From Minisyncoccota bacterium (GTDB taxonomy: Bacteria > Patescibacteriota > Minisyncoccia > Phycocordibacterales > UBA6065), in NCBI GenBank assembly GCA_036565605.1, contig DATCXV010000009.1, positions 4,977 to 68,976 on the forward strand: a stretch of DNA of 64,000 bases, read 5' to 3'. The stretch's first letter is position 1. Each line of letters starts with the position of its first letter. Position numbers and translations under genes: made by a program. Below are positions 286-2,958 of this stretch, piece after piece. The notes under the pieces were generated by a model. It made no database searches. It saw only the letters and a list, made by a program, of their open reading frames with translations, and had not been told where the DNA came from.

Positions 286-288
286 TAA

Positions 289-711
289 GTGACACAAGAT
301 TTCTCTAAAAAAATGACAATCGTATTGCGAGAAGATTTAGCTTCTTGGCAACTTACAAATACGATTGGACATATTGCGGCTTATCTTGGAAACAAGATGG
401 AGGAGCCGTTCGATACTGGAGAAAACTTTGTCACTAAAGATAATCTGGCTATCCCAAGAAATTCTCAATTCGCAATTGTTGCCCTAAAAGCTTCAAATGA
501 AGAATTAAAGAATTTAAGTGGTCAGCTTCGTAACTCAGTATTGTCCTGGATAGTGTATGTTCAAGAAATGATCGACATGATTGATGATAAAGAACTTGCA
601 AGGTCATTAAGTCAGATCGAATCAGATAAATTGAATATACTCGGAATAGGACTCTTTGGTTCGAAAGACGAACTAAAGAAAATTACTGGTAACCTGAAGT
701 TATGGAAATAA
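289..711 (+). CDS. DUF2000-family protein (PTH2-like fold), hypothetical
   Basis: 140 aa; N-terminal KMTIVLREDL...IGHIAAYLG resembles the PTH2-type peptidyl-tRNA hydrolase start; C-terminal LNILGIGLFGSKDELKKITGNLKLWK resembles the DUF2000 C-terminus (family name from memory). GTG at 289, and ATG at 313 is the more likely start. About 32% GC versus about 50% in flanks. Confidence 0.6.
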   Translation: MTQDFSKKMTIVLREDLASWQLTNTIGHIAAYLGNKMEEPFDTGENFVTKDNLAIPRNSQFAIVALKASNEELKNLSGQLRNSVLSWIVYVQEMIDMIDDKELARSLSQIESDKLNILGIGLFGSKDELKKITGNLKLWK

Positions 712-728
712 CGTGGAACGAAAACTAA

Positions 729-785
729 CTAAGTTATACGCATACGTTAGCCCAACACGTCATCAAAGCAGCAAAGGAACTCTAA
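729..785 (+). pseudogene. relic second copy of gap 3' end (LSYTHTLAQHVIKAAKEL*)
   Basis: Read in frame, nt 735-785 encode YTHTLAQHVIKAAKEL*, versus YTHTLVQHVIKAGQNL* at the end of the intact gap (nt 238-285). The match is at protein level with many synonymous DNA differences. A stop codon lies just upstream at 726-728, so this is only a remnant. Confidence 0.55.
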
Positions 786-1051
786 TTCGTCTCTCAACAA
801 AGCTTCCGCAACGAACACCGGACATTTTTCCGGTGTTTTTGCTAGGTTGGCAAACCCCGGTTCACCTTCGTTAGGATACCAACCTATTTTTCTGCCCAAA
901 ATGGAGAAAAGATTTCTGCTAATATTGGTTACATGATTAAGAACCATCTGCGCTTGCACGAGGTCTTTATAAATTCACTGGAGGGAAATTAGGAATTCAC
1001 GTATATCTAAATGATTTCACAGAATTTCTTCTAAAGAGAAAATCTAACTGG

Positions 1052-1354
1052 TTGCTTTTTCTAGGAACGAAGGATCGGGAAGAAAGAATCAAAACAATTG
1101 GTGATTTAACAGAACAGTTTAAACAGGAAGCAGTATTTGGGAGGACTGACGGTTTTGATCCCAGAATCAACGGCTATTCGATGCAGATATGGCTCGATTA
1201 TCGTGGATGGGAAGTGTACTCATTCACATCCCTGATTTTTAAAAACATGGATATCCTCATTGGTACCGCACTAACCTTCATTGGATTTGTTGGAGGCATG
1301 ATTTTACCAAAAATTGGAAGCCATCTTTGGTCATTGCTACAGGCAAAGTGGTAG
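1052..1354 (+). CDS. hypothetical small membrane protein
   Basis: 100 aa with a hydrophobic C-terminal segment (ILIGTALTFIGFVGGMILP). TTG start in the ORF track, with an alternative ATG at about 1181. AT-rich island context. Confidence 0.3.
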   Translation: MLFLGTKDREERIKTIGDLTEQFKQEAVFGRTDGFDPRINGYSMQIWLDYRGWEVYSFTSLIFKNMDILIGTALTFIGFVGGMILPKIGSHLWSLLQAKW

Positions 1355-1478
1355 AGCACATCCGACACAACACTGGCCTTGTTGTCAAGGTTTGTACAGG
1401 AGTACACTTAACTTACCTAAAGCAAAAGGCTTTCGGGTGGACAAATCAGTGGCGGAACAATTTATTAACTGTTGGAAA

Positions 1479-1545
1479 GGCTCAAAGACTCTTGGGACAG
1501 CTAGTAAGTCGTTCTGACTTGCTGGTTTGTCCCAAGAGCCTTTTC
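1479..1545 (+). terminator. long bulged hairpin followed by TTTT (terminator-like)
   Basis: ggctc..tcttgggaca (1479-1499) pairs with tgtcccaaga..gagcc (1528-1540), followed by tttt at 1541-1544. Confidence 0.4.
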
Positions 1546-1642
1546 TTAAACTAGGCGTAGGGGTAGCGTCGGGTCAGGTCTTCCTATATGCAACACTTGG
1601 CATGTAGCCAGAAATTAAGAATAGGCAGGTGTAGATGAAATC

Positions 1643-2440
1643 GTGGGAGCGGAAGAGTATTATTTGTATATAGATGATTCAGGCACAAGACAACCTGATA
1701 CTAATGACCCTGCTTCTGTGGGGCCGACGAATTATTTCGCATTGGGTGGAGTGTTAATCAAAAAAGGAGATCGTGACACTGTGGCTCAGAAATTTAATCA
1801 GTTTTGCAGTAAATGGAATATCACATATCCTCTCCACTCTACTGACATAAGAAATCGAAAAAAGAATTTCAGGTGGGTAAAGGGAGAAAAAGGTAAAGTG
1901 TTTCTTAAGGATCTGTCAGATTTTCTTGTCGATATACCAGTGATTGGTTTTGCTGCTGTGATACACAGAGATGGATACAATAAAAGGTATCAACCACTCT
2001 ATGGAAAAAATAGGTGGCATTTGTGTAAAACTGTATATTCAATATTGATTGAGAGAGCCTGTAAGTATATTGGTTCTGATTCGAACCTTAGAATAAGATT
2101 TGAAGAATGTGGTACGAAAGAGCAGGAGAATATTGAAAACTATACAAAGGATTTGGTAAATAGCGGCATGCCTTTTGATCCTAATACCTCGAGTTCTTAT
2201 TCATCACTTACATCTGACGATTTCAGGAAAATAATAAAAGGGAAACCTGAGCGTAAAAAGAAAGTCAGTACTTATATGCAGATCGCAGATCTTTATCTGT
2301 ATCCTATGGTTAGGAGGAAACGAGACCCGGGTTACTATTTATGGCAAATTCTTTTTAAGAACAAAAAAATTATTGATGCCTTAATACCATCTAATCTTTG
2401 GCGTCAACTTGGTATTAAATATAGTTGTTTTGATATATAA
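1643..2440 (+). CDS. DUF3800-family protein (predicted RNase H-like/nuclease-like fold), hypothetical
   Basis: 265 aa. The N-terminal YLYIDDSGT matches the hallmark YIDESG start of DUF3800 proteins, and an internal H-S-T-D motif is present. GTG start at 1643; the exact start is uncertain. Followed by a strong intrinsic terminator. Confidence 0.65.
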   Translation: MGAEEYYLYIDDSGTRQPDTNDPASVGPTNYFALGGVLIKKGDRDTVAQKFNQFCSKWNITYPLHSTDIRNRKKNFRWVKGEKGKVFLKDLSDFLVDIPVIGFAAVIHRDGYNKRYQPLYGKNRWHLCKTVYSILIERACKYIGSDSNLRIRFEECGTKEQENIENYTKDLVNSGMPFDPNTSSSYSSLTSDDFRKIIKGKPERKKKVSTYMQIADLYLYPMVRRKRDPGYYLWQILFKNKKIIDALIPSNLWRQLGIKYSCFDI

Positions 2441-2443
2441 AAC

Positions 2444-2469
2444 AAAAGGCCCCTGGAGGGGCTTTTTTG
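2444..2469 (+). terminator. rho-independent terminator
   Basis: aaaaggcccctggaggggcttttttg: GC stem with tgga loop plus a T6 run immediately after the DUF3800 stop. Confidence 0.75.
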
Positions 2470-2740
2470 TCGGCTCACGTTGGCGAACCCGGGGCTTACG
2501 CCCATGTAATTAATACTACCATAAAACACCGCCAGTTGCAAGTTATACAATAAATAACAGGCTGTTTCAAATCACATTTATTTTAGCCCTATTTTAGATA
2601 TTTTGTTCAAGATTTATTTAAATTAAGATTAATTTATCCACATGTATAATAAGCTTTCACCTCCAAAGTATTAAGAAGTTCCACATATTTCGATTTTTGT
2701 TACATACTAACTATAAGTGCTGGAAAATTAATTTAAAAAT

Positions 2741-2902
2741 ATGAATTGTCCAAAATGTAAAAAAGAAATGATTGTGAAGAACAAAGATGTTAGTCACAAC
2801 GACAAAGATGGTAAAAAGTATGACCGAACATTGTACTGGTGTAATGCGGATGATATCTGGATCAACGTCGAAACTCCAAAAGAAAAAACTCTGGCACAGT
2901 AA
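2741..2902 (+). CDS. small zinc-ribbon-like protein (53 aa), not in ORF track
   Basis: ATG at 2741; MNCPKCKKEMIVKNKDVSHNDKDGKKYDRTLYWCNADDIWINVETPKEKTLAQ*. One CPKC pair plus a third Cys (WCN). In a very AT-rich stretch and followed by a perfect hairpin. Confidence 0.35.
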   Translation: MNCPKCKKEMIVKNKDVSHNDKDGKKYDRTLYWCNADDIWINVETPKEKTLAQ

Positions 2903-2918
2903 TCTGGAAAAATCAGGA

Positions 2919-2956
2919 AAAATCGCCGATCGATAGAATCTATCGATCGGCGATTT
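2919..2956. terminator. perfect 17-bp inverted repeat hairpin (bidirectional terminator candidate)
   Basis: aaatcgccgatcgatag-aat-ctatcgatcggcgattt. A-rich upstream and T-rich on the complementary strand downstream. Sits between the + strand micro-ORF and the 3' end of the minus-strand ORF 2959-3285. Confidence 0.5.
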
Positions 2957-2958
2957 GA

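Follow-up and report, generated by a model that had tools for sequence, protein, structure and literature searches.

What occupies the junction between gap and rpiB in a 64-kb stretch of Minisyncoccota DNA (contig DATCXV010000009.1 of assembly GCA_036565605.1; the whole stretch is referred to here as the window), where did it come from, and what might it do? The two genes are separated by an AT-rich tract (positions 286–2958) with four plus-strand open reading frames (ORFs), which encode a DUF2000 protein, a 100-aa protein, a DUF3800 protein and a 53-aa Cys-rich protein. An earlier note on this DNA had read the tract as one horizontally acquired module of possibly defensive function. Our analysis supports the acquisition, but points to a mosaic rather than to a single module, and it places a putative small RNA (sRNA) gene immediately 3′ of the DUF3800 gene, with which the predicted DUF3800 nuclease may form a mobile conflict module.

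A Putative Small RNA Gene at the 3′ End of DUF3800

Because eleven unrelated RNA motifs (DUF3800-I to -XI), the role of which has been unexplained since 2017, adjoin DUF3800 genes (PMC5737381), we searched the noncoding stretches of the tract. The only stretch that is conserved relative to homologous loci lies just 3′ of the DUF3800 stop (approximately 2459–2550), where 75–83% identity is retained beside proteins that are themselves only ~50% identical. An nhmmer profile built from 17 copies, and searched in 80 DUF3800-homologue loci, recovers the element in 64 of the 80, once per locus, in constant orientation to the gene and 0–41 nt past its stop (147 nt once), and a covariance model (R1) places it beside the gene in ~75 of these 80 loci. 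R1 scores the window copy at 58.7 bits (E 1e-18; 2432–2526, minus strand), which is the only strong match in the 64 kb, and it also finds the sRNA in both DUF3800 loci of the viral collection; in 1.2 Mb of sequence from 87 control loci it gives one weak 21-bit match. A further weak match in the window, at 14411–14487 on the plus strand (18.4 bits, E 0.004), is most likely a terminator-like hairpin only.

Several independent measures indicate that this element is structured. When 53 distinct sequences are aligned with MAFFT, blind to structure, 93.6% of the cells of 23 base pairs are paired, compared to 23–55% in slid controls, 17 of these 23 pairs carry compensatory changes, and the covariation is 0.387, compared to 0.05–0.15 in the slid controls. 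None of 500 shuffles exceeds any of the five measures used, and RNAalifold independently predicts the same three helices. The window copy folds as predicted, with a minimum free energy of −31.4 kcal/mol (z −3.6). When read in the minus-strand sense, G·U pairs outnumber A·C oppositions by 122 to 12, which fixes the strand of the sRNA and argues that the element is an RNA transcribed from the strand opposite the gene, rather than a DNA site or the 3′ untranslated region (UTR) of the mRNA.

The consensus has the anatomy expected of a gene. In the 5′ to 3′ direction, TTGAMA, a 17-nt spacer and TATAAT are followed, after ~7 nt, by a purine. Hairpin P2 (U-GGGC-loop-GCCC) comes next and is joined through the junction CGGGGU to hairpin P1 (7–9 bp, closing GG-U/G-CC), from which GCCGRNA and an A-rich linker lead to a terminator hairpin that is GC-rich and ends in a U-run. 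A position matrix of the promoter region over the 53 loci places TTGAMA at −36 to −31, TATAAT at −13 to −8 and the purine at −1. The promoter score reaches at least 9 of 12 in 28 of the 53 distinct loci, whereas shuffled sequences give 1.7 such loci and the opposite strand gives none, and the 17-nt spacing is found in 35 of the 53. In the lineage represented by L161, L162 and L164, the sRNA follows the gene in tandem and has a TTGAAA-17-TAGATA promoter to itself, which argues that the sRNA is an autonomous gene for which convergence with DUF3800 would not be essential.

The sRNA shows no better complementarity to the 5′ UTR and start of its cognate DUF3800 gene than to those of non-cognate genes (p = 0.40), and its recognition is therefore more likely to be structural, through the conserved junction and helices. 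The terminator hairpin of the window copy is flanked by A-runs and U-runs on both sides, and in some loci the shared hairpin falls inside the end of the coding sequence. The earlier note had assigned this hairpin to DUF3800 as its own strong terminator; it appears to be bidirectional, and would belong at least as much to the convergent sRNA. Taken together, these comparisons show a putative sRNA gene that is conserved, covarying, strand-specific and tied to one nuclease subfamily, in hosts of 30–69% GC.

The DUF3800 Protein and Its Genomic Context

The DUF3800 protein matches its Pfam family (PF12686) at 45.3 bits against a cut-off of 21 (E 1.9e-11), with residues 7–224 covering profile positions 1–148 of 149. 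Among 117 homologues, the acidic N-terminal YIDDSG motif (D11, D12), E154 and Q213-I-A-D216 are invariant or nearly so, with D11, E154, Q213 and D216 invariant in all of the sequences. The AF2 model is confident (pLDDT 93.5, pTM 0.91), and its nearest folds are RNase HII, H2A and HIII; it can be superposed on the RNase H core, and likewise on PIWI. Of the putative catalytic carboxylates, D11 lies on strand 1, E154 on a later strand and D216 on a helix, as would be expected for RNase H. Based on this model, the protein is predicted to be a nuclease of the RNase H/PIWI fold with a D...E...QxxD set of residues. It differs from RNase HII, H2A and HIII and from Argonaute PIWI in showing an identity of only 9–12%, in the rearrangement of the D...E...QxxD set and in its extra helices. 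We found no sequence-level match in the PDB, and no MID/PAZ-like or zinc-finger domain is recognisable in the 265 residues.

The subfamily comprises proteins of ~265–285 aa, mainly from Kaiserbacteria, Adlerbacteria, Parcubacteria and Minisyncoccia, with one Mesorhizobium member. In 34 of 39 loci, the DUF3800 gene is lower in GC than its flanks, which span 30–69% GC. The neighbours (102, classified by Pfam) are heterogeneous and include no recurring protein partner: they range from HTH proteins, Peptidase_M78/ImmA, subunits of type I restriction-modification systems, an IS66 transposase and a resolvase to the housekeeping genes for SRP54, SHMT and the CCA-adding enzyme. The low GC of the gene and the variety of its neighbours together point to a DUF3800–sRNA unit that is accessory, mobile and complete in itself, and that moves between hosts of 30–69% GC with no conserved partner protein. 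A tRNA gene lies within 1.5 kb of DUF3800 in 9 of the 80 loci, with no evident enrichment. We also considered a phage origin for DUF3800, and rejected it based on the two matches among 2.9 million viral contigs and the lack of any PHROG match.

Two homologous loci hold further RNAs. At L087, a LOOT RNA (RF03000, 67.7 bits; 1292–1413, minus strand) lies 2.7 kb from the DUF3800–sRNA cassette. At L172, a contig from IMG/VR, an isrK RNA and a C4 antisense RNA (immunity RNAs of the P1/P7-phage type) lie at 7227–7421, 4 kb from the cassette, and, given these two RNAs, this copy appears to reside in a prophage-like region.

Comparison with Known RNA Families and RNA–Protein Systems

The published DUF3800 RNAs occur in either orientation to the gene, are often closed by a terminator and are not 5′-UTR elements (Weinberg et al. 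2017, PMC5737381; Rfam RF02968, RF02969 and RF02975, among others). The sRNA described here shares the features of this class (PMC5737381), as it covaries, adjoins the gene, occurs in either orientation and ends in a terminator. In neither the window nor the 36 homologous loci scanned does a DUF3800-* family of Rfam 15 reach its gathering score, and no match to the DUF3800-I to -X RNAs is listed around the gene, even at E ≤ 10. DUF3800-XI (RF02975, 48 nt) gives a local match to model positions 6–21 on the same strand as our sRNA model; its score is 13.1 bits in the window, rising to 14.9 bits at L094, compared to a gathering score of 37.8, and it covers hairpin P2 and the following CGG only. 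The 5′ hairpin (U-GGGC-loop-GCCC-CG-G) shares its architecture with these positions of DUF3800-XI and is nearly identical to them in sequence, whereas the sRNA here has in addition a promoter, a second and longer hairpin and a terminator, and accompanies one subfamily of ~270 aa, mostly in Patescibacteria. It is thus either a divergent relative of DUF3800-XI or a twelfth motif. In a limited search, we found no literature since 2018 on the function of the DUF3800 RNAs.

In type III toxin–antitoxin systems (ToxIN-like), the antitoxin is made up of tandem repeats, which precede the toxin gene on its own strand and which the toxin processes. The DUF3800 unit resembles these systems in that a nuclease is accompanied by an adjacent, cognate, structured RNA in a mobile two-component unit, and differs from them in that its sRNA is single-copy, downstream, usually convergent and without tandem repeats, and in that the toxin fold is not the same. 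In type I toxin–antitoxin pairs, such as par/Fst of pAD1, a convergent sRNA and mRNA share one bidirectional terminator. Sharing of a terminator hairpin between convergent sRNA and mRNA is also seen here, but with a 265-aa enzyme in place of a small hydrophobic peptide, with no 5′ complementarity, and with a lineage in which the arrangement is tandem.

In type VII retrons, DUF3800 is the effector that accompanies a reverse transcriptase and the msr/msd noncoding RNA (Mestre et al. 2020, PMC7736814). Here too, an RNase H2-like DUF3800 protein is paired with a dedicated structured noncoding nucleic acid in a compact mobile cassette. The retron-associated DUF3800 proteins, however, lack the Q of the QxxD motif (PMC7736814), whereas Q213xxD216 is kept in the present subfamily, and the present RNA is an ordinary sRNA that ends in a terminator. 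No reverse transcriptase is present among the island ORFs or in the top families of the 102 neighbours, and our Rfam scans gave no retron RNA. DUF3800 also serves as a CRISPR accessory nuclease (PMC10910872, PMC12669027), and occurs in type V-A2/VI-F loci; in contrast to the TPR–DUF3800 proteins of CRISPR systems, the protein here has a single domain of 265 aa, and there are no cas families among its neighbours.

Composition, Boundaries and Mosaic Character of the Tract

The features of the locus are collected in Table 1. As the earlier note had observed, the tract at the gap–rpiB junction is distinctly AT-rich: its GC content is 37.6%, compared to 48.7% in the remainder of the window, and no other 2673-bp window of the 64 kb is lower (mean 48.5%, sd 2.6%; ~4 sd lower). 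At third codon positions, the GC fraction (GC3) is 0.32 in the DUF2000 gene and 0.31 in the DUF3800 gene, compared to 0.44–0.57 in gap, rpiB, rpe and tkt. All four plus-strand genes that the note had listed are present, including the 100-aa ORF that it had described as a membrane ORF. Relative to 14 syntenic genomes, the insertion spans the whole of 286–3308, reaching rpiB, and thus takes in the minus-strand ORF at 2959–3267 as well. Each unit is closed by its own terminator-like hairpin (808–845, 1484–1550, 2449–2462 and 2920–2956).

Table 1. Features of the gap–rpiB Region, in Window Coordinates
Feature	Position	Strand	Basis
3′ end of gap (GAPDH)	1–285	+	Pfam Gp_dh_C, E 7e-12; complete gene in L002
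DUF2000 (PTH2-like fold), 140 aa, GTG start 3 nt past gap stop	289–711	+	Pfam PF09391
Terminator-like hairpin and U-run	808–845	+	−19.5 kcal/mol, z −3.6; UUUUUG after stem
100-aa ORF, C-terminal hydrophobic helix	1052–1354	+	called as gene in JGI and ENA contigs
Long stable hairpin, ~26 pairs, then UUUUCUU	1484–1550	+	inverted repeat; −37.8 kcal/mol, z −5.0
DUF3800 gene, 265 aa, GTG start	1643–2440	+	predicted RNase H-fold nuclease
Putative structured sRNA gene, ~65 nt, convergent with DUF3800	2441–2505	−	covariance model, covariation, promoter
sRNA parts, 5′ to 3′	P2 2492–2503; P1 2472–2489; A-rich linker; terminator stem 2449–2462; U-run 2441–2447	−	
Sigma-70-type sRNA promoter	2513–2541	−	−35 TTGCAA 2536–2541, 17-nt spacer, −10 TAGTAT 2513–2518
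Spacer, very AT-rich (27–34% GC)	2542–2740		composition
Promoter-like site ahead of 53-aa ORF	2623–2650	+	TTAAGA-16-TATAAT, 10/12
53-aa Cys-rich micro-protein gene, CPKC...WC-x2-D	2741–2902	+	conserved in variants
Perfect inverted repeat, arms 2920–2937 / 2939–2956	2920–2956		18 nt, 100% complementary, 1-nt spacer
Orphan ORF, 102 aa (108 aa from GTG at 3285), GC-rich (57%)	2959–3267	−	called in four contigs
rpiB, conserved right flank	3309–3797	+	Pfam LacAB_rpiB, E 1e-40; synteny

The DUF2000 protein scores 84.8 bits against PF09391 (cut-off 25, E 6.6e-24), over profile positions 1–133 of 133. It misses the cut-off of the PTH2 family (PF01981; 21.2 compared to 23 bits, E 3.5e-4), with which it has only a related fold, and it resembles Atu0240 (PDB 2gax; sequence match E 3e-5). 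The profile searches proposed in the earlier note thus bear out the DUF2000 and DUF3800 assignments, but not membership of PTH2 or a PADLOC defence family. The hundreds of DUF2000 homologues are 60–89% identical, and in five different genomes only 2–12 bp separate the gene from secA upstream, with NUDIX, MazG or HAD genes behind it. The linkage to secA in most Patescibacteria suggests that this PTH2-like protein has a conserved role connected with secA and, judging by gene order, DUF2000 behaves as a highly conserved Patescibacteria gene, usually found right after secA, rather than as an island gene. At the secA–DUF2000 loci (L170 2855–7693; L173–L176; L178), variable “house-cleaning” genes come next (NUDIX, MazG, HAD, HD, ASCH, DUF2007). 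The gene is also found between gap and rpiB in the L166–L169 lineages, from which the remaining island genes are absent. The DUF2000 genes of the window and L166 are 82% identical in nucleotides and 84% in amino acids, with a fraction of identical codons among identical residues of 0.66, whereas gap, tktN, tktC and rpiB of the same pair are 46–73% identical in amino acids, with fractions of 0.29–0.41. The difference in codon identity and the low GC3 of 0.32 together indicate that DUF2000 was probably imported recently from a lower-GC Patescibacterium, rather than inherited vertically. The hairpin at 808–845 would end a joint gap–DUF2000 transcript.

For the 100-aa ORF, we found no match in Pfam, NCBIfam or PHROG, and of 1.8 billion representatives only P0252 is homologous, and distantly so (43% identity, E 4e-10). 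The hairpin at 1484–1550, which is longer than a usual terminator and lies ~90 nt upstream of the DUF3800 start, is probably the terminator of the unit of the 100-aa ORF; neither nhmmer nor blastn finds a counterpart of it in the homologous loci.

The 53-aa ORF retains CPKC and WCDxDD in two variants (P0243, P0245) despite substitutions, and contains one CPKC knuckle together with C34-x2-D; its zinc-ribbon matches in Pfam are sub-threshold (E 0.006–0.04). A copy in L179/L180, on a contig of 31% GC with unrelated neighbours, is 86.6% identical in nucleotides over the ORF only. These comparisons argue for a real, selected and independently mobile micro-gene.

Searches with tblastn of the 80 DUF3800-homologue loci found none of the other island proteins; DUF3800 occurs there alone. 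Because the island genes never co-occur elsewhere, DUF2000 is linked to secA, and the 53-aa ORF moves alone, the tract is best read as a mosaic, made up of four or more transcription units that were acquired separately. The horizontal acquisition claimed in the earlier note thus stands, on composition, GC3, synteny and the codon evidence for the import of DUF2000, while the single module that it had envisaged does not.

At the right edge of the four units, the perfect hairpin that the earlier note had seen is confirmed. It folds into 17 pairs, at −27.2 kcal/mol (z −5.4) on one strand and −26.7 kcal/mol (z −6.1) on the other, and is a bidirectional terminator-like hairpin that separates the stops of the 53-aa ORF and of the minus-strand ORF and marks the step in GC content. 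The minus-strand ORF is divergent from rpiB and does not occur at the gap–rpiB junction of relatives. Among 5.8 billion proteins, the only homologue of its 102-aa product is the protein itself, and it matches no family. It may be a lineage-specific gene or no gene at all, its coding status being uncertain.

The ORF list and a Pfam scan show no integrase-like ORF in the tract, in agreement with the earlier note. A search for flanking direct repeats that could serve as att sites gave no significant pair, and the window holds neither a second copy of the gap 3′ end nor any tRNA, such that tRNA-targeted integration is unsupported. Tandem repeats in 1–3500 are limited to two trivial micro-repeats, with none that is CRISPR-like. 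No Rfam family rises above chance in the noncoding parts of 1–4000, 700–1700 and 2400–3320, where the matches are noise (SNORD22, mir-43 and similar) and terminator look-alikes. Outside the sRNA, 711–1642 and 2441–2740 give no credible match, only weak and short blastn and nhmmer matches (best E 0.019). Pseudogene remnants were considered for these two intervals and rejected, the six small ORFs there having no Pfam match. No island protein matches PHROGs or NCBIfam.

The window sequence is 100% identical in ENA ERZ27239340 k133_118664 and in JGI Iowa corn-soil contigs. The only other 1-kb windows of the 64 kb with less than 43% GC are at 34001–35500 and 38501–39500 (40–43%), and these may be further foreign segments.

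The gap–rpiB Junction in Relatives

The closest relatives of RpiB, among bacteria represented by one genome per species, are at most 61% identical. The synteny comparison suggested in the earlier note was carried out on 14 Patescibacteria genomes in which gap directly abuts rpiB (6–160 bp apart), followed by rpe and a split tkt; in none of the 14 does DUF2000 or DUF3800 lie between the two genes. Four relatives carry other insertions at the same junction. In L013 (4917–7594), gap and rpiB are separated by two DUF6922+AbiEii pairs (type IV toxin–antitoxin) and a MazG-like gene, and in L016 (4625–5709) by a NUDIX gene and a PemK/MazF-like toxin; the inserts in L009 (626 bp) and L036 (475 bp) are shorter. 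Given the AbiEii, PemK and other inserts found there in relatives, the gap–rpiB junction is a recurrent landing site for accessory and toxin–antitoxin cassettes, and the last ~20 nt of gap, which form the left junction, are its recurrent insertion point. The MazG-like protein of L013 (MENYNKLVRDKIPEILDKKG...) is the same protein as that encoded two genes upstream of the homologue of the 53-aa ORF in L179.

In L169, a tyrosine integrase and a 37-aa remnant of the GAPDH C-terminus lie beside DUF2000, and an intact gap is absent. Short repeats resembling the 3′ end of gap (GAGCGSSGGGAGGTT and AAAGCTGATCAGA...TAA) precede successive cassettes in L166 (5930–6000) and L169 (4029–5290 and 5950–6000), as if cassettes had been stacked site-specifically at the 3′ end of gap.

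The earlier note had remarked on the colinearity of gap, rpiB, rpe and tkt. At 3804–5098, a pair of type IV pilin-like genes, with the N_methyl motif and, in the first of them, a Laminin_G_3 domain as well, also separates rpiB from rpe. This pair is found there in none of the syntenic relatives, and is a second insertion within the same operon. The transketolase is split into N- and C-terminal genes (5815–7860), with a 43-aa hydrophobic ORF between them (6734–6865) that gene callers predict; in L169, two small ORFs occupy the site of the split.

Weighing the Possible Explanations

The explanation that we favour, although we would place the whole of it at slightly below even chances, combines a mosaic at the gap 3′ end with a DUF3800–sRNA conflict module. 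AT-rich units would have accumulated at the gap 3′ end in a Paceibacteria genome, comprising an imported DUF2000 gene read through from gap, a rare 100-aa membrane ORF, the DUF3800 unit and a mobile 53-aa Cys-rich gene, with the orphan GC-rich ORF following these four. The functional core would be a two-gene cassette, made up of the DUF3800 nuclease and an independently transcribed sRNA of ~65 nt. The nuclease would bind its dedicated RNA partner, the sRNA, at the conserved hairpins and at the junction (GCCCCGGGGU...GCCG), and the sRNA would hold the nuclease in check or license it, in the manner of an antitoxin or a sensor RNA, and the pair would constitute a mobile conflict module in defence, abortive infection or addiction. 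We infer this conflict function by analogy with type VII retrons, with RNA-antitoxin systems and with the toxin–antitoxin-rich hotspot in which the cassette lies. The defensive role that the earlier note had suggested for the tract as a whole is, on the same analogy, plausible for the DUF3800 unit only.

Several observations weigh against this explanation. Searches of PADLOC-DB v2 with the four proteins gave no significant match, the sole match being that of the DUF3800 protein to PDC-M04A (12.9 bits, E 0.013), with none for the other three. The neighbourhoods of the DUF3800 homologues are not consistently defence islands, and only 2 homologues were found in the viral collection of 2.9 million contigs. 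The start of the window sRNA, near 2505, and its ends are placed from the consensus only, the E-values of R1 are rough, and the covariation controls leave some phylogenetic signal. A further counterweight is an alternative that we consider unlikely, but the least so of the rivals, namely that DUF3800 and the sRNA form a housekeeping ribonucleoprotein that processes RNA or RNA/DNA hybrids (for example, in an RNase H2-like manner), with the sRNA as cofactor or substrate. Such a role would fit the closest folds (RNase HII, H2A and HIII), the many neighbours such as SRP54, SHMT and the CCA-adding enzyme, and the lack of matches to defence profiles. It is harder to reconcile with a distribution that is patchy and single-copy across hosts of 30–69% GC, with a gene that is AT-shifted in 34 of 39 loci and absent from syntenic relatives, and with a hotspot that holds toxin–antitoxin genes in other relatives; the DUF3800 family has, moreover, been recruited elsewhere as an effector or accessory of retrons and CRISPR systems (PMC7736814, PMC12669027).

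The near-universal convergence of the two genes, with a shared hairpin 0–41 nt from the stop and sometimes inside the coding end, and the A-runs and U-runs on both sides of the window hairpin, would also be compatible with control in cis, in which the sRNA acts on DUF3800 by convergent transcription only and has no protein-binding role. Overlapping terminators or antisense RNA from read-through would be the means, on the model of type I toxin–antitoxin pairs that share a bidirectional terminator or of antisense RNAs under riboswitch control. We hold this to be less probable still, as L161, L162 and L164 have the sRNA in tandem with its own promoter, the two 5′ hairpins and the junction are conserved beyond the needs of an antisense RNA, and the cognate 5′ complementarity is lacking. 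That DUF3800 is a minimal PIWI/RNase H-like enzyme for which the sRNA is guide or scaffold in the cleavage of complementary nucleic acid appears improbable to us: although the model can be superposed on PIWI, the RNA begins at hairpin P2 and ends in the terminator, its variable parts are short loops and the A-rich linker, leaving no obvious guide segment, and the protein has only 265 aa and no MID/PAZ-like or zinc-finger domain. Very little probability attaches to the conserved element being a DNA site (att or operator), or the 3′ UTR or terminator of the DUF3800 mRNA, instead of an RNA gene. The element includes a palindrome, CCCCGGGG, and is situated at the edge of the cassette, and its hairpins form equally on both DNA strands, but the excess of G·U over A·C is opposite to the gene, the −35 and −10 boxes occur at a fixed distance on that strand only, the terminator is U-tailed, and the compensatory changes keep three separate helices. 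Finally, we give next to no credence to the tract being ancestral DNA of locally deviant composition. The presence of DUF2000 between gap and rpiB in the L166–L169 lineages would agree with such an origin, but core genes that are 46–73% identical stand against a DUF2000 gene that is 84% identical in amino acids and 82% in nucleotides, with a codon fraction of 0.66; the junction is empty in 14 relatives, and the other island genes are absent even from L166–L169.

Returning to the DUF3800–sRNA conflict module, a bolder version of it, which we regard as doubtful, would make DUF3800 and the sRNA a new class of two-component RNA–protein immune or addiction system, in which the nuclease is gated or targeted by the sRNA. 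If this were true, the DUF3800 RNAs described elsewhere, eleven unrelated motifs, would be interchangeable partners of one enzyme family, the cassette of ~1.1 kb would be a minimal testable example, and a puzzle left since 2017 would be explained.

Conclusions

The sRNA adds a further RNA partner, one that lies outside the detection of Rfam 15, to the unexplained partnership between DUF3800 proteins and RNA. In this case, the RNA has a readable gene anatomy, with a promoter, a start, two conserved hairpins and a terminator, and its link to one protein subfamily is near-obligatory across hosts of 30–69% GC. As the cassette is small enough to be synthesised, the DUF3800–RNA question becomes experimentally tractable. 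For the organisms themselves, our analysis suggests that the tiny genomes of Patescibacteria keep a hotspot at the gap 3′ end, at which small toxin–antitoxin-like cassettes and micro-genes are exchanged at high nucleotide identity.

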